Part shown: positions 1 through 6,012 of the stretch, piece by piece
Layout of the letters: the number at the start of each line of letters is the position of its first letter
How positions within the stretch are numbered: position 1 is the stretch's first letter
Source: Allocoleopsis sp.
GTDB lineage: Bacteria; Cyanobacteriota; Cyanobacteriia; Cyanobacteriales; Coleofasciculaceae
Assembly: GCF_036703385.1 (NCBI RefSeq)
Contig: NZ_DATNPA010000018.1
Location: forward strand, 1-14,618
Direction of reading: 5' to 3'
DNA length: 14,618 nt
Notes under the pieces: model-generated
The model's database searches: none
What the model was told of the DNA's origin: nothing
The model's input: the letters and a program-made list of their open reading frames with translations, nothing else
Program-made: the position numbers and the translations under genes

Positions 1-1032
1 ACCCAGATTTGACGGCACCTCCCCCATCATCCTAAACAGCGAACACAGCATCCACAACAGCAGAGGTGTTTGTCCCAACTCCTGCAACCGACTGCCCAAC
101 TGCCTCAACATTTGCTCTCCCTGCTGTGGCAGATAGGCGCGGACGAACTGCTGCATCTGTGCTTCACTCAGGGGTTGCATTTCCAGCTTCTTGGCAATAT
201 CCAAGTCGCCCCCCACCCCCAAGTCCCGCGTCGTGAAAATCATCGGCGTCGTCTTCTGGTAGTCCTGCCGAAATTTCTGCAAATCCCGCCGCGCTTCTTG
301 GGAAGGCAATTCATTGAGTCCATCCAGCAGCAGCAGCAATTGCCCCTGCCGCAACCAGGTTTTGAGCGTTTCGCTATCTACCGTTAAGTTGGGGTCATGC
401 CGTTGTAGGAAGTCTTGGATTAAGTCGAGGATTGAGGTGCGGTAGTAGCGGAGTTCGACGAGGACGGGGATTTTCACCCCCCCTGCCCCCCTTATTAAGG
501 GGGGAGCAAGAGAATCTTGTGTGTTACTGGTGAAGGAGTCAGTTGAACAATCTTCTTCCCCCCTTGCTAAGGGGGGACTGAGGGGGGTGATTCCGGATGC
601 TTCTCCTTTTGCCTCTGAGTGAGTTGAAAAATCTTTTTCCCCCCTTTTTAAGGGGGGATTAAGGGGGGATCTTCCGGATGCTTCGCTGCACCTCTGCGCC
701 TCCTCCAGCACCAACCGTACCAACGCCCTCGATTTCCCCGAACCCGGACGCCCCACTAACAACACATGCTCCGAGGCATACTTGTGCAACCCCTCCAACA
801 CCGTCAATCGCTCAATTTTCTCCTCCCCTTTCCCCCTCTCCTCCCTCTCCCGTTCCACCGTCTGCACCATCAAGCCAAAATCAAACAGTAAGGGCGGTGC
901 CCCCGTGCCCGCCCTAGATGACGCTTCCGCCTCTTCCCGCTTTCGCCCCACTACATCCGTAATGGTGTAAACTTCCCACCATTGCGCGTAAGTCTTGCAA
1001 AGTGATTCTAAATATCGACTCCAATGGGTCAT
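1..1032 (-). CDS. NACHT-family STAND NTPase, N-terminal ~344 aa; the 3' end runs off the left edge of the window
   Basis: The minus-strand translation is open from ATG (1032..1030) to position 1. It reads MTHWSRYLESLCKTYAQWWEVYTITDVVGRK...LEGLHKYASEHVLLVGRPGSGKS (Walker A/P-loop), then VKIPVLVELRYY, then TWLRQGQLLLLLDGLNELPS (Walker B hhhhDGhDE), then PMIFTTRDLG (sensor-1), then LLWMLCSLFRMMGEVPSNLG. The order and spacing of motifs is that of NACHT NTPases, which are abundant in cyanobacteria. It is absent from the ORF track because it has no in-window stop. The plus-strand ORFs 70..387, 678..917 and 782..970 are its antisense shadows. Confidence 0.8.
   Translation of the reverse strand, partial: MTHWSRYLESLCKTYAQWWEVYTITDVVGRKREEAEASSRAGTGAPPLLFDFGLMVQTVEREREERGKGEEKIERLTVLEGLHKYASEHVLLVGRPGSGKSRALVRLVLEEAQRCSEASGRSPLNPPLKRGEKDFSTHSEAKGEASGITPLSPPLARGEEDCSTDSFTSNTQDSLAPPLIRGAGGVKIPVLVELRYYRTSILDLIQDFLQRHDPNLTVDSETLKTWLRQGQLLLLLDGLNELPSQEARRDLQKFRQDYQKTTPMIFTTRDLGVGGDLDIAKKLEMQPLSEAQMQQFVRAYLPQQGEQMLRQLGSRLQELGQTPLLLWMLCSLFRMMGEVPSNLG
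477..690. repeat. Three C6-N7-G6 palindromic hairpin units lying in frame inside the NACHT CDS. The second and third units are a diverged ~85-bp tandem duplication that shares the motif TTCCGGATGCTTC.
   Basis: The units are CCCCCCTTATTAAGGGGGG (486-504), CCCCCCTTGCTAAGGGGGG(ACTGA)GGGGGG (558-587) and CCCCCCTTTTTAAGGGGGG(ATTAA)GGGGGG (639-668). On the minus strand they translate without stops as ...SPLNPPLKRGEKDFSTHSEAKGEASGITPLSPPLARGEEDCSTDSFTSNTQDSLAPPLIRGAGG..., which lies between the P-loop helix and the IPVLVELR strand. Confidence 0.7.
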
Positions 1033-1786: not shown

Positions 1787-1846
1787 ATCCCCCTTGCATC
1801 CCCCTTAAAAAGGGGGACTTTGATTCAATTCTCCCCCCTTAATAAG
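1787..1846. repeat. Hairpin-repeat unit CCCCCTTAAAAAGGGGG plus an orphan half-unit CCCCCCTTAATAAG
   Basis: Same C5-6/G5-6 clamp architecture as the units at 477-690, 1895-1997 and 3287-3380. Confidence 0.6.
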
Positions 1847-1894
1847 CTACGGTATACACACATCTCCCGAGCAACCTCAAAATGCAGCATTTTG

Positions 1895-1997
1895 CCCCCC
1901 TAGCCCCCCAATTTTGGGGGGAACTGGAAGTTCAAAGTCCCCCAGAATTGGGGGATTTAGGGGGCATTCCAGGATTCAAGCAAAAAGTCTAATCATC
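1895..1997. repeat. ~100-bp double-hairpin dispersed repeat, copy 1, upstream of ddl
   Basis: CCCCCCAATTTTGGGGGG ... TTCAAAGTCCCCCAGAATTGGGGGATTTAGGGGGCATTC..GCAA.A.GTCTAATCAT. It is about 85% identical to the copy at 3287-3380 and in the same orientation. Confidence 0.7.
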
Positions 1998-2077
1998 AGC
2001 CGCAAGACATTCGGGAGCCTCGAAGCTTGACTGCTGTGATAGGCTATCTGCGAAGAGGAGTGCTGGAGGTATAATAA

Positions 2078-3220
2078 ATGGCTAAATTACGGGTCGGTCT
2101 GCTGTTTGGCGGGTGTTCCGGAGAACACGAAGTTTCGATCAGTTCAGCACGGGCGATCGCAAAAGCCCTGAGTTCTGACCAAAACGCCAATCACTACGAA
2201 CTACTGCCAGTTTACATCCAAAAAGATGGTGTCTGGCAATCGGGAGACGTTGCTGTACACGTCCTCGAATCGGGTAAGGCTTTGCAGATAACAGGTAGTA
2301 ACCCGCAGTATCTCCCGACTCCGACGGCGGATTCTCCGTCATCCTCAGCTAGCAGTGAGATTTTACCCTCTGCCGCGAGTGCTTCTAAATTGAGTCGTGT
2401 CGGTGAAAATATCAGTTGGTCTGAAGTGGATGTTTGGTTCCCCATCCTGCACGGCCCGAATGGCGAAGATGGTACGATTCAAGGCTTACTGAAGTTAATG
2501 CAAGTTCCCTTCGTGGGTTCTGGCGTCCTGGGTTCAGCCCTAGGGATGGATAAAATTGCCATGAAAATGGCATTTACGCAAGCTGGATTGCCGCAAGTCA
2601 ATTACATGGCAGTAAACCGTTCCCAGATTTGGTCGAATCCCTGTGTGTTTCCCAAACTTTGCGACCAAATTGAGGAAACGTTGGGCTATCCCTGCTTTGT
2701 CAAACCGGCTAACCTAGGGTCATCAGTCGGGATTGCTAAAGTGCGATCGCGCCCTGAATTAGAAGCAGCATTGGATAATGCGGCTAGCTACGACCGACGA
2801 ATCATCGTGGAAGCCGGTGTCGTGGCGCGGGAAGTCGAGTGTGCGGTGTTGGGTAACGACCAGCCTAAAGCCTCTGTGGTTGGGGAAATTACCTATAAAA
2901 GCGATTTTTATGACTACGAAACCAAATATACCGAGGGACAAGCTGACTTATTAATCCCAGCCTCCCTACCCGATACCGTTGCCACCAAAATTCAGGAAAT
3001 GGCACTTCAGGCGTTTGCTGCCGTTGATGCTGCCGGGTTAGCACGGGTGGACTTCTTCTACATCGAAGAGACTGGAGAAGTCTTGATTAACGAAATCAAC
3101 ACGATGCCCGGTTTCACAGCAACCAGTATGTACCCTCAATTATGGGGCGCTACAGGGATTCCTTTCCCAGAATTGGTTAACCAACTAATTCAGTTGGCAA
3201 TGGAACGACAATCTTCTTAA
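2078..3220 (+). CDS. ddl: D-alanine--D-alanine ligase
   Basis: [24 protein letters not shown]..., followed by an ATP-grasp core ([13 protein letters not shown]; DFFYIE...[11 protein letters not shown]). A GGAGG Shine-Dalgarno lies ~20 nt upstream. The protein is 380 aa and carries an S/P/A-rich low-complexity insert in the N-domain. Confidence 0.9.
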
Positions 3221-3286
3221 GCCGAAGGGCACTAACTTAAGCAAAAAGTAGTCGTTCTTTGGACAAAACCTAGATTGGGGAGAATA

Positions 3287-3380
3287 CCCCCCAATTCTGG
3301 GGGAACCGATATTTCAAAGTCCCCCAATTTTGGGGGATTTAGGGGGCATTCGAGCATTTATGCAAGAGGTCTAATGATTA
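3287..3380. repeat. ~100-bp double-hairpin dispersed repeat, copy 2, downstream of ddl and upstream of ndk
   Basis: CCCCCCAATTCTGGGGG ... TTCAAAGTCCCCCAATTTTGGGGGATTTAGGGGGCATTC..GCAAGAGGTCTAATGAT. It is a direct repeat of 1895-1997. Confidence 0.7.
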
Positions 3381-3454
3381 AGGATTGGGTGCTTGGGGGC
3401 TTTCTAGTCTAATCTGGGTTTGGTGATTTGTTGAAAAATATTGAGGAGAGAAAC

Positions 3455-3904
3455 TTGGAACGCACATTTCTCATGATTAAGCCGGATGGCGTACAGCGTA
3501 ACCTTGTCGGTGAAATCATCCGGCGTTTTGAGGCAAAAGGCTTTACCCTGGTTGGGCTAAAGCTGATGAATGTCAGCAAGGAACTTGCAGAAAAACACTA
3601 CGACGTTCACAAAGAACGACCCTTTTTCCCCGGACTCGTCCAGTTCATCACCTCCGGGCCGGTGGTGGCAATGGTTTGGGAAGGCGATGGTGTGATTGCC
3701 TCAGCGAGAAAGATCATTGGTGCCACCAATCCCCTCAATGCTGAACCGGGTACGATTCGCGGTGATTATGGCGTCACCGTCGGTCGGAACCTGATTCACG
3801 GTTCAGATGCTCCCGAGACAGCGCAGCACGAGATTAGCCTCTGGTTTAAGGACGAGGAACTCGCCAGCTGGCAGGCGACCTTAACACCCTGGTTGTACGA
3901 GTAA
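3455..3904 (+). CDS. ndk: Nucleoside diphosphate kinase
   Basis: [25 protein letters not shown]...[20 protein letters not shown], including the catalytic His region. The ORF track starts at TTG 3428. TTG 3455 gives the canonical MERTF N-terminus and is preceded by GAGGAG (3443-3448). An ATG at 3473 is also possible. Confidence 0.88.
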
Positions 3905-5096: not shown

Positions 5097-5318
5097 GAGC
5101 GACAAAGAGCTTATCACCGAGCAAGCAAAAGGCGACCAAGGGCTTTAAGATGGAAGCTTCTCACTAGAAGCGAGAGTTCAAAACCTAGAACCTATCTCTC
5201 AGGCAAGGCTCTCCCTTTCTTGGCAAGCCCTTAAGTTTTCCGGATAATCGCAGCCATTCGCTGTAAATTATCTGATAACATCAGCGTGCCACTGCCTTTG
5301 GTAGGCTCTTTGTCGCTC
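5097..5318. repeat. ~220-bp element bounded by a perfect 14-bp inverted repeat (GAGCGACAAAGAGC / GCTCTTTGTCGCTC). It is MITE-like or a structured RNA.
   Basis: The arms are 5097-5110 and 5305-5318. The interior has internal hairpins (GCTTCTcactAGAAGC at 5154-5169), repeated AAGCCCTT/AAGGGCTT segments and GACAAAG repeats. It has no coding potential. Confidence 0.4.
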
Positions 5319-5431
5319 GGCTTTTTCTGGTCGTCAAAGACAAAGTCGCCGTATCACATCAGCAGTGTATGCTCGAGGCGCTATTCTAGAATCTTCGGCG
5401 ATAGGTCGCCAGTACGGTATTCACGCACACC

Positions 5432-5827
5432 ATGAACGCATTCCAACCTCGTATACCAACTCAGCAACCCGTAGAACCCCGCCGGATGGCTCACCGGACT
5501 CAGCGCCGTCAGCCCCGTCATTCTTATCAAGCTGTTGCCGGTGAAACGACCGCTAGGTTGGCTGTTAATTTGGTGCTATGTACCGCTGCGATCGCCGGAC
5601 TGGTAAAACTGTTGCCTTATCACCTATCTCAGCAAGCTAAGCTTCGAGAACTGCGAACGGAAGTGCAGGGTGCACAGGGACGAGTTAAGGGTTTACGTGC
5701 CGATTTCGGTCGAACATTTGACTCTAGACAAACTAAGAGCGTCATGCAGGAGCAAAGCTATCGGGTTGACGAAAATCAGCGTCCAGTTGTCCTGAAAGAT
5801 CCAACCCCCAACGAGGATAACTACTAA
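5432..5827 (+). CDS. Hypothetical small membrane protein with a basic N-terminus, one transmembrane helix and a coiled-coil segment; possibly an FtsB/DivIC-like septation protein
   Basis: A 131-aa protein. The transmembrane helix is LAVNLVLCTAAIAGLVKLL and the heptad-like segment is SQQAKLRELRTEVQGAQGRVKGLRADF. The call rests on architecture only. Confidence 0.45.
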   Translation: MNAFQPRIPTQQPVEPRRMAHRTQRRQPRHSYQAVAGETTARLAVNLVLCTAAIAGLVKLLPYHLSQQAKLRELRTEVQGAQGRVKGLRADFGRTFDSRQTKSVMQEQSYRVDENQRPVVLKDPTPNEDNY

Positions 5828-6012
5828 ACCCTGGCAGAACTTTTTAATCCGTTGTCAGTAGCCGTCCTAAACGGCGTACACCAAAAGCCCTATATATTTC
5901 TTCCTTCTGCCTCCTCACTAAAGCTTTGGTGACCTCTACCGGATTTTAAGCCAGAAAGACTTGAGACCGATTCTCATGCTCGCTTCCTAATGCCCACATA
6001 GAGGTTTTTGCC

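Follow-up and report, generated by a model that had tools for sequence, protein, structure and literature searches.

Hairpin repeats on either side of ddl in an Allocoleopsis genome: probable independent insertions of an apparently unnamed cyanobacterial MITE

Described small repeats and the hairpins of the window

Among the very short repeats of cyanobacteria, the SDR1–8 of Nostoc punctiforme are reportedly 21–27 nt long and nested in minitransposons and heptamer arrays; they are also said to lie beside such arrays, to be nested at times within themselves, and to have undergone recent gain and loss. Cyanobacteria have been documented as MITE-rich (PMC11602168; PMC3542288), and the Rickettsia palindromic elements (RPEs) of Ogata et al. 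(2000), as far as PMC10969869 relays that work, are palindromic in-frame insertions that leave the genes unbroken. The repeat treated here is apparently an unnamed member of the cyanobacterial MITEs and small dispersed repeats, and two of its copies stand on either side of ddl in the window, by which we mean the whole stretch of 14,618 nucleotides analysed from an Allocoleopsis sp. contig (NZ_DATNPA010000018.1).

A pattern search for a clamp consisting of C5-6, a loop and G5-6 returned 13 overlapping matches where 0.08 would be expected, and none of 200 shuffles reached that number. These correspond to eight distinct hairpins within the first 3.4 kb (at 486, 558, 639, 1800, 1904, 1939, 3287 and 3321), seven of which carry a third run in the form C5-N-G5-N2-7-G5, a pattern with 0.00 expected matches; by computed folding the stability per unit is -10 to -17 kcal/mol. 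The earlier note on this DNA had described a dispersed family with a common clamp architecture, present in at least eight units over that distance and matching no named element, which description holds, our searches likewise having given no named match. An Rfam 15 scan of the window (E <= 1) returned no family at its gathering score; its sole hits with E below 1, one of 18.5 and one of 21.5 bits, fall within 557–623 and 821–904, outside both ddl-flanking copies; and neither the motif nor its reverse complement was matched in the literature searched by string. A phage collection searched with the first copy gave no match either, the element contains no ORFs beyond chance short frames, and a tRNA/tmRNA scan of the window found none, so that tRNA-linked integration is not indicated.

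The copies at ddl, their family and the relatives

The locus is made up of the features listed below, in which TIR stands for terminal inverted repeat; here and throughout, L numbers denote the loci and contigs compared.

2078–3220, plus strand: ddl, D-alanine--D-alanine ligase (Pfam Dala_Dala_lig_N/C)
3455–3904, plus strand: ndk, TTG start, 149 aa (Pfam NDK, E 9.6e-61)
1871–1991, plus strand: probable MITE copy 1, upstream of ddl, from alignment with the full-length members L124–L133
1871–1894: degenerate left arm of copy 1
1895–1921: left unit of copy 1, C6-TAG-C6-AATTTT-G6
1931–1964: right unit of copy 1, TTCAAAGT-C5-AGAATT-G5-ATTTA-G5
1965–1991: right arm of copy 1, with the diverged TIR aGCAAaAaGTCTA at 1979–1991
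3232–3373, plus strand: probable MITE copy 2, in the ddl–ndk spacer, from alignment with family members
3232–3286: rearranged left part of copy 2, with CTTAAGCAAAAAGTAGTCG, similar to the left arm TTGCAAAAGTCGA
3287–3303: hairpin of copy 2, C6-AATTCT-G5
3313–3346: right unit of copy 2
3347–3373: right arm of copy 2, with the intact right TIR TGCAAGAGGTCTA at 3361–3373

As direct repeats, the copies span 1905–1996 and 3287–3378 (~92 nt), with the same orientation, starts 1382 nt apart and ddl between them. Two same-orientation copies of ~100 bp bracketing ddl had been correctly recognised from the letters, though the identity given as ~85% proved to be 80%, both ungapped and after MAFFT alignment, the longest exact stretch in common being 22 nt. 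The core attributed to the pair, CCCCCA.AATTGGGGG, holds for copy 1 but not for copy 2, in which the loop is AATTTT. The motif GCAAAAAGT, said to precede each copy, is indeed found at 1980 and at 3241, yet it follows the core in copy 1 and precedes that of copy 2; because the window contains 547 different 9-mers that are repeated, such a recurrence is in itself meaningless, and its significance is that both occurrences sit within the arms of the MITE shell. Copy 1 folds as a single long hairpin (-51.6 kcal/mol, z -4.6), and an intact left TIR is found in neither of the two copies.

The family element measures ~125–135 bp, has a 13-bp TIR, TAGACCTCTTGCA...TGCAAGAGGTCTA, with TA ends, and conforms to the consensus TAGACCTCTTGCAAAAGTCGAaCTGCG-[C6 TAG C6 AATTCT G6 ... 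TTCAAAGT C5 AGAATT G5 ATTTA G5]-CATTCCAGcATTTATGCAAGAGGTCTA. Inside it, a 26–35-nt unit, (TCAAAGT)C5-N6-G5-ATTTA-G5, is present as an inverted pair, so that the whole element constitutes a long imperfect palindrome. A search with the window-specific right arm located full-length subfamily members on 11 metagenome contigs beyond the two window copies, and the perfect 13-bp TIR is present in L124–L133, L075, L090 and L114. The element thus has the size of a MITE (< about 500 bp, no transposase coding capacity), along with the terminal inverted repeats and the dispersed copies with insertion polymorphism by which MITEs are recognised. TA stands at the start and the end of every full copy; because no clean filled/empty pair was seen for this family, those ends are inseparable from the TIR. 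At the site of copy 2, the relatives have a 22-nt spacer that is replaced rather than interrupted, with no TA at the junction.

A TIR scan of 865 kb of loci revealed no autonomous IS with the TIR TAGACCTCTTGCA; no transposase was present among the ORFs beside the solitary TIR in L015, and none was enclosed by opposed unit pairs 0.5–3.5 kb apart in the loci examined. The opposed pair in L028 was considered as an IS and discarded, the enclosed 529-aa ORF being, judged by its sequence, a putative membrane transporter and not a transposase. The window also contains a second, unrelated MITE of 102 bp (1368–1469), which insertion interrupts a conserved 163-aa gene; it is flanked by an exact TA target duplication, and L127 has the corresponding perfect empty site, indicating that TA-duplicating transposition is active in the lineage.

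An exact look-up of the Ddl protein gave no record, and relatives were found through a homology search. The syntenic L127, at 92–96% nucleotide identity across the whole window, carries copy 1 alone and is without the other six hairpins, namely the ddl–ndk copy, the units at 1789–1846 and three units in a NACHT gene. L122 and L127 have copy 1 at the orthologous site, in a form closer to the consensus than that of the window; L117, L118, L119, L120 and L121 lack it. Copy 2 is absent from L122 and L119 (Ddl 92–95% identical) and from L127, in which window positions 3223–3372 are represented by 22 unrelated nucleotides, the same short, empty ddl–ndk spacer being found in L122 and L119. The lack of most copies at the same sites in close relatives marks these repeats as ordinary genome parasites rather than as a control device for ddl. 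A ddl-specific role, as the earlier note had envisaged, was by its own criterion of refutation to be given up if the two copies resembled each other no more than they did copies elsewhere; they are 80% identical to each other versus 85–87% to copies on unrelated contigs, and the role is not supported.

The hairpin module beyond the ddl locus

The remaining units of the window, with an adjoining repeat end, are the following.

1789–1823, minus strand: solitary unit of a second subfamily with a 7-nt loop, reverse complement TCAAAGT-C5-TTTTTAA-G5-ATGCAA-G5
1831–1846, plus strand: half unit CTCCCCCCTTAATAAG, exact reverse complement of 491–506 (16/16 complementary)
1847–1865, plus strand: CTACGGTATACACACATCT, similar to the left end of another repeat shell
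477–504, minus strand: unit in the minus-strand NACHT gene, in frame (...APPLIRGAGG...), absent in L127
558–587, plus strand: unit in the NACHT gene, in frame (TPLSPPLARGE)
639–668, plus strand: unit in the NACHT gene, in frame (SPLNPPLKRGE)

The units at 1789–1846 and those in the NACHT gene form, with the ddl-flanking copies, a single superfamily of G5/C5 hairpin modules. The region of the 1789–1823 unit is not alignable with L127, where no hairpin is found. The half unit breaks off directly where another repeat end begins, and the terminus of that different shell appears in many other genomes on the module's right-hand side, as ...ACTTGTGTATACACGGTAG (L003, L017, L025, L062, L083, L087, L100, L106 and others), which arrangement at 1831–1865 suggests nested insertions. 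In the NACHT gene the ORF stays open through the three units, which occupy a hypervariable loop, the segment being missing in some homologues; the unit at 558–587 belongs to an 81-nt (27-codon) tandem duplication (536–603 and 617–684).

The unit was found in >116 genome loci, nearly all of them cyanobacterial and from many orders, with hosts including Pseudanabaena, Leptolyngbya, Moorena, Pleurocapsales and Synechocystis. Across many of those orders the TIR shells around it are of at least five unrelated kinds, and a further one occurs on the plasmids pSYSA and pSYSM of Synechocystis PCC 6803; the shells of L007, L021, L048, L077 and L104 hold one unit in place of a doublet, and in L090 the same TIR bounds a shell without the module. 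The presence of the module in unrelated shells, together with this module-free shell, implies that the shell transposase alone is insufficient to account for the distribution of the module. In addition, units without a recognisable shell lie in frame not only in the NACHT loop but also, elsewhere, in NRPS, transporter, pentapeptide-repeat and other long ORFs, as well as in an annotated CDS of Allocoleopsis franciscana PCC 7113. Among the 84 units classifiable in other genomes, 77 are intergenic and seven coding; spacers with units are more often convergent (28) than divergent (8), and in tandem spacers the orientation is unbiased (21 sense vs 20 antisense). Such an intergenic, convergent-rich and strand-unbiased distribution is the usual landscape of MITEs and REPs.

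Competing readings and described systems

The two ~100-nt copies are, in our judgement, probably independent MITE insertions that have decayed in permissive spacers. Full-length members with perfect TIRs and TA termini, the insertion polymorphism, and an identity lower between the two copies than to copies on unrelated contigs all count for this explanation. The non-autonomous ~125–135-bp shell would owe its movement to a DDE transposase of the IS630/Tc1-mariner type that targets TA and acts in trans from another place in the genome, and copies would have landed upstream and downstream of ddl, clear of the conserved ddl/ndk blocks, to decay thereafter. Copy 1, with both TIRs degenerate and common to relatives, would be the older insertion, and copy 2, with its right TIR intact, its left side rearranged and its occurrence lineage-specific, the younger; any effects on the ddl/ndk transcripts would be incidental. 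As observations that count against the MITE account, we note that no autonomous IS was found in the 865 kb, that the window copies have no intact left TIR, that the TA ends are not separable from the TIR, and that the module recurs in shells of unrelated kinds.

Among possible roles the earlier note had named host transcript punctuation of ddl/ndk—terminator, attenuator or mRNA-stabilising 3' hairpin—which interpretation we regard as improbable. It would accord with the stability of the hairpins, both per unit and in copy 1 as a whole, with their position in the spacer upstream of ddl and in that between ddl and ndk, and with the enrichment of units in spacers between convergent genes, where gene 3' ends lie; enterobacterial REP elements do, moreover, stabilise upstream mRNA. 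Nevertheless, the hairpins are missing from the same sites in relatives with Ddl 88–95% identical; ATTTAGGGGG or AAC, instead of a T tract, follows the main hairpins; and a terminator scan flags only 1799–1817 (plus) and 3295–3274 (minus), the total of 6 being not above the background of shuffled sequence (3.5 +/- 1.7). The unbiased orientation in tandem spacers speaks against punctuation as well. Among the relatives compared, the conserved block upstream of ddl begins at 2018, and the 83-nt block upstream of ndk (3373–3454), kept in L117, L119, L122 and L127, starts precisely at the end of copy 2; since these promoter-proximal blocks begin just downstream of the elements, the latter lie outside the conserved regulatory DNA. 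Nor do the loops of left and right units covary (4.77 of 6 positions vs 4.76 when shuffled), so that the doublets provide no evidence for selection on the long hairpin; the 4 nt flanking the clamps gave no covariation either (1.82 vs 1.80), in a comparison confounded by the reading of palindromes on both strands. That the two copies represent a local duplication, serving as recombination substrates for deleting or amplifying ddl, seems hardly credible: their common orientation and spacing around ddl would suit such a role, but they are not mutual closest relatives, differ in age (copy 1 being common to L122 and L127, copy 2 not) and share, at 80% identity, no exact match beyond 22 nt, which stretch is short for homologous recombination. 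The gene ddl is normally essential, and none of the relatives has a deletion or duplication of it at this locus. To a regulatory G-quadruplex on the plus strand at 3277–3346 we assign practically no weight. The four G4-5 runs that had prompted the idea are there, but with inter-run loops of 18, 28 and 5 nt they fail the canonical pattern of four runs of at least 3 G at limits of 7 or 12 nt and match it only at 30 nt; C runs in these 70 nt can pair with them in stable hairpins that compete, and the whole segment is absent in close relatives.

A different possibility, which we hold to be rather doubtful, is that what propagates is the 26–35-nt hairpin unit rather than the TIR shell, as an SDR-like micro-element that would colonise MITEs of unrelated families, repeat arrays and permissive protein loops, whether by templated repair, by way of an RNA intermediate or with the help of a dedicated nuclease, the ddl-flanking copies then being two colonised shells. 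The recurrence of one module in unrelated shells across orders, the module-free and single-unit shells, and the shell-less in-frame units all favour this proposal, as does the absence of the NACHT units from a relative at about 92% nucleotide identity; the nesting reported for SDRs would offer a parallel. On the other hand, no filled/empty pair differing by the unit only was found, recombinational shuffling of MITE interiors would look alike, and the NACHT difference is explicable by gene conversion between paralogues, similar units being present in L137 at 91% nucleotide identity; published SDRs, in what PMC5861425 sets out of them, are in addition confined to Nostocaceae. With the same reserve, we entertain the thought that the unit might be a self-propagating micro-element related in kind to the SDRs but much more widely distributed, spreading by an undescribed mechanism among unrelated MITE shells, repeat arrays and, in frame, protein loops; its invariable C5/G5 stems would then be due to a conserved cyanobacterial protein that recognises them, and not to hairpin stability alone.

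If, as we favour, the copies are independent MITE insertions, they have little import for the biology of ddl and ndk, the hairpins being accidental passengers and not conserved regulators. The repeats are of practical concern, in that they break assemblies (contig L122 breaks off inside one), give rise to spurious small ORFs, enter real proteins in frame (NACHT, NRPS, transporters) and are signs of very recent change in the genomes of near-identical strains. Their wider interest resides in a short G5/C5 hairpin module that is conserved across cyanobacterial orders and common to MITEs with unrelated ends; were that module independently mobile, the question of the smallest mobile element would widen from Nostocaceae to cyanobacteria generally.

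Compared with described systems, the REP/REPIN elements mobilised by RAYTs are likewise short palindromic inverted doublets that form a long hairpin, lie between genes and reach a high copy number; the present unit TCAAAGT-C5-N6-G5-ATTTA-G5, in contrast, lacks the GTAG/CGTC tag, and its doublets are situated inside TIR-bounded shells. The sole RAYT seen, a truncated one in the ddl–ndk spacer of L120 (NF047646, 70 bits), is flanked by quite different REPs, and for these two reasons, the missing GTAG tag and the other palindromes beside that RAYT, mobilisation of the module by a RAYT was rejected. With the RPEs our units share in-frame insertion into coding sequence—here the NACHT loop, where a conserved ORF is kept open, and elsewhere the NRPS, transporter and pentapeptide-repeat ORFs—but the phylum and the sequence are others, and the present units are mostly intergenic (coding 7/84). 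The enterobacterial BIMEs and the pneumococcal BOX elements are similarly modular, combining one conserved hairpin module with variable flanking modules, but are without sequence relation to our repeat and lack the TIR shells found here. By description, the SDR1–8 of Nostoc punctiforme likewise present a very short hairpin unit nested in minitransposons, comparable to the seating of the present unit in several shells; within the scope of PMC5861425 those repeats are reported from Nostocaceae only, whereas the present unit occurs in many orders. Finally, in relation to the MITEs of the IS630/Tc1-mariner type (the ISY100 derivatives in Synechocystis, Nezha, and the Anabaena sp. 90 catalogue), our element differs in having no matching autonomous transposase in the 865 kb of loci and in an interior module common to MITEs with unrelated TIRs. 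Like them—Nezha and ISY100 being compared by description and not by end sequences—it is small and non-coding, with 13-bp TIRs and TA ends, and is multi-copy, mostly intergenic, polymorphic between close relatives, folded into a long palindromic hairpin, and assembly-breaking.

Hairpins of the first 3.4 kb

The window spans a whole contig, 14,618 bp long, from the MAG of an Allocoleopsis sp. (Coleofasciculaceae, Cyanobacteria). It contains the pattern CCCCC-N5-9-GGGGG at eight distinct places (486, 558, 639, 1800, 1904, 1939, 3287, and 3321), all within the first 3.4 kb and against an expectation of 0.08 matches, so that the earlier note accurately described a hairpin-repeat family with a shared clamp. 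A third run (C5-N-G5-N2-7-G5) is present in seven of the eight, the expectation being 0.00. The features concerned are the following; psaM lies directly beyond TerC in syntenic relatives.

1-1032, minus strand: NACHT NTPase gene, partial, running off the left contig end
1110-1711: small conserved gene, interrupted by a repeat
1368-1469 (1366-1471 with flanks): unrelated 102-bp MITE without the G5/C5 module, TIR TAGCAATTCTC.../...GAGAAACGCTA
2078-3220: ddl
3455-3904: ndk
Downstream of ndk, minus strand: TerC gene (Pfam), then further genes

The largest direct repeat of the window (1905-1996 and 3287-3378; 92 nt, 1382 nt apart) corresponds to the two similar copies already noted around ddl—copy 1 upstream of the gene, copy 2 in the ddl-ndk spacer—with an identity of 80% rather than 85%. 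The core written as common to both does not match the loop of copy 2; and GCAAAAAGT, supposed to precede each copy, does occur at both, but after the core in copy 1 and before it in copy 2. Such recurrence is common, 547 different 9-mers being repeated in the window.

A single unit, present twice in inverted orientation (a doublet), makes up each ~100-nt copy: the right unit reads TTCAAAGT-C5-AGAATT-G5-ATTTA-G5, and the left one, C6-TAG-C6-AATTTT-G6, is in essence the right unit reverse-complemented. Copy 1 consequently forms a single long hairpin instead of two (RNA, -51.6 kcal/mol, z -4.6), the DNA fold being the same; copy 2, whose outer left C run is gone, forms separate hairpins (z -2.2). 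A unit by itself folds at -10 to -17 kcal/mol, and the stem of the right unit reaches 10 bp by including its AAGT and ATTT flanks.

The TIR-bounded element and its proposed transposition

The subfamily-specific right arm, GGGGGATTTAGGGGGCATTCNAGNATT, was searched for in metagenome contigs, and the alignment of the 11 contigs that matched gave the whole element as TAGACCTCTTGCAAAAGTCGAaCTGCG-doublet-CATTCCAGcATTTATGCAAGAGGTCTA: ~125-135 bp, bounded by a terminal inverted repeat (TIR) of 13 bp that is perfect, with TA at either end. Because the full element is thereby displayed, GCAAAAAGT can be recognized as shell-derived in both copies, belonging to the right TIR in copy 1 and to the left arm (TTGCAAAAGT) in copy 2. 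The latter copy keeps its right TIR intact (3361-3373), its left side being rearranged; copy 1 is decayed at both ends, with aGCAAaAaGTCTA (1979-1991) as right TIR. The same TIR encloses heptamer repeats without the G5/C5 module in one case (L090) and an interior with a second nested element in another (L075). The ddl-flanking repeats are thus a TIR-bounded, multi-copy, polymorphic, non-coding element, a MITE, and as such of a known kind, that of cyanobacterial MITEs and small dispersed repeats (SDRs), within which we found no name for it.

The copy 2 region has two occurrences of CTTAAGC at its left border, 19 nt apart (3217-3223, overlapping the ddl stop codon, and 3236-3242); the pair may be microhomology from the rearrangement that replaced an ancestral 22-nt spacer. 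Several short contigs start or stop inside the repeat (L122, at position 1; L008, L012, L027, L058, and L064), so that short-read assemblies often break at this element.

The TA termini of all full copies, together with the exact TA duplication around the unrelated 102-bp MITE, suggest indirectly that the element would move by TA-targeting cut-and-paste transposition through an IS630/Tc1-mariner-type transposase acting in trans. No autonomous partner was found in the fetched loci, nor did the compared relatives offer a clean empty site for this family. For the 102-bp MITE the empty site is kept in the syntenic contig L127 (GGATAC-TA-GAAAGTC). That MITE breaks the conserved gene into ORFs 1110-1370 and 1442-1711; its deletion in silico with one TA restores a 163-aa ORF matching full-length cyanobacterial hypothetical proteins of ~162 aa at up to 84% identity.

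The ddl locus in relatives and readings of host function

We compared the loci around Ddl homologues of 83-95% identity, the best comparator being L127, which aligns across the entire window at 92-96% nucleotide identity. Downstream, the order ddl-ndk-TerC-psaM is kept among these relatives. L127 and L122 have copy 1 at the orthologous site; it is missing in L117, L118, L119, L120, and L121, of which the first three have heptamer GGTAATC/GCTAATC arrays in its place. These tandem, STRR-like arrays upstream of ddl (GGTAATC/GGTAATG/GCTAATC) lie at ~3750-3775 in L117, ~3905-3930 in L118, and 1-50 in L119; what remains of an array of this kind may border copy 1 at its right end (...GTCTA/ATCATCAG). 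Copy 2 is missing in L127, L122, and L119, which share the short spacer ...TTAAGCAACCCTACATTTATCCCCAGCC/AATGATTAAGG..., while L117 has other sequence there and the L120 spacer (5143-5942) carries a 5'-truncated gene for a REP-associated tyrosine transposase (RAYT; NF047646, E 1.9e-19, 70 bits, profile positions 55-146) bordered by REP palindromes of its own. Mobile repeats of several kinds seem to have landed in the ddl-ndk spacer. Since the units at 1789-1846 and the three in the NACHT gene are likewise missing from L127, only two of the eight hairpins are common to genomes differing by 4-8%.

Two further segments are missing from L127: 1.8 kb at 8203-10027, with a 463-aa ORF (8417-9808; SPFH/Band 7 and MVP-shoulder domains), and 334 nt adjoining psbK at 10253-10586, with heptamer-type repeats (GGGAATAGGGAATCGGGAGTCGGGAATAG) and the perfect hairpin GAACAGACGCGACATGTCGCGTCTGTT.

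Just past each element begins a conserved promoter-proximal block, at 2018 for ddl and at 3373 for ndk; the elements therefore lie outside conserved DNA. The local, ddl-specific role that the earlier note had proposed fails by its own comparison: the two copies are 80% identical to each other, versus 85-87% to copies on unrelated contigs. Our verdict is that there is no ddl-specific function. Other proposed roles fare no better: transcript punctuation finds no support in a terminator scan of the window, which stayed at background level and did not flag the main hairpins, the suggested G-quadruplex would require loops of 18 and 28 nt, and the longest exact match between the copies, proposed as recombination substrates, is 22 nt, which is poor for recombination. 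In other genomes 77 of 84 classifiable units are intergenic, in 28 convergent versus 8 divergent spacers, and those in tandem spacers are 21 sense versus 20 antisense; no covariation was found between the loops of paired units.

The hairpin module beyond its shell

A genome scan with CCCCCNNNNTTGGGGGATTTAGGGGG returned at least 116 loci, and nearly all the listed matches are from cyanobacteria of many orders (Moorena, Okeania, Symploca, Pseudanabaena, Leptolyngbya, Pleurocapsales, Nodularia, Chamaesiphon, Planktothrix, and others). A few exact unit matches in MAGs labelled Dehalococcoidia (L013, L036, and L074) have a different repeated context, ...GGGTCTGGGGGTGTCCCCCA...AAAGTCCCCCAAGATTGGGGGATTTAGGGGGTTGATT, and may be true non-cyanobacterial copies or binning contamination. 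By BLAST the module is also found in Allocoleopsis franciscana PCC 7113 and on plasmids pSYSA and pSYSM of Synechocystis sp. PCC 6803, a model strain usable for tests of transcripts or binding proteins. The Synechocystis doublets are at 2480-2600 of L134 (pSYSA 75041-75111, with a TIGR03985 CRISPR-associated gene on one side and a hypothetical gene on the other) and in L135 (pSYSM 43211-43281). According to the flanks of the listed loci, a doublet or lone unit sits in shells of at least five kinds, whose terminal repeats are unrelated:

CAGGACTTACGCA...TGCGTAAGTCCTA
GCGTTGCTGAAT...ATTCAGCAACGCC
ATACTAAATCCG...CGGATTTAGTAT
...ACTTGTGTATACACGGTAG
AATATTGGCGA...TTCGCCAGCAG
CTAAGAGCGTGTTTGAAAAG...CTTTATAAACAGGTTCTAAG (further shell, Synechocystis)

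In the window, a CTAC...GTAG shell remnant (1847-1865) directly abuts a truncated half unit (1831-1846), which contact gives a picture of nested insertion.

Units also occur in coding DNA. The NACHT gene has three in frame (468-690), within the NACHT NTPase domain between Walker A and Walker B and ahead of the KIPVLVELRYY strand; they encode SPLNPPLKRGE, TPLSPPLARGE, and APPLIRGAGG, and two of them are inside an 81-nt tandem duplication. This loop is hypervariable among homologues, some with similar peptides and others with none: a Nodularia homologue of 58% protein identity has the DNA hairpins intact, and L127 (~92% nucleotide identity) has at 441-518 an in-frame GTAG-type REP palindrome (TGTAGGGGCGATTCATGAATCGCCCCTACA) instead. 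Loci L136 and L137 also entered these observations. In-frame read-through recurs in long ORFs of other genomes (L016, L026, L030, L032, L037, L069, and L080), among them an NRPS adenylation domain and a 1,104-aa ORF that looks like a membrane transporter, and in an annotated pentapeptide-repeat protein on an A. franciscana PCC 7113 plasmid (L138); the peptides include SPRIGGFRG, PPELGDLGG, and SPLNPPxLGDF. In a Limnoraphis MAG (L080, ~7575-7680) an open reading frame contains an at least fivefold tandem expansion of the unit's 15-nt tail (GGGGATTTAGGGGGC), read as GDLGG repeats.

A transposase acting on the shell does not account for the presence of this short module both in shells that are unrelated and within coding DNA. 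Its spread might reflect modular recombination, conversion between paralogues, or a genuine mobility like that of SDRs, reportedly described by Elhai et al. in 2008; we consider it rather unlikely that the hairpin unit is independently mobile. In being read through in frame inside ORFs, the units resemble the Rickettsia palindromic elements (PMC10969869).
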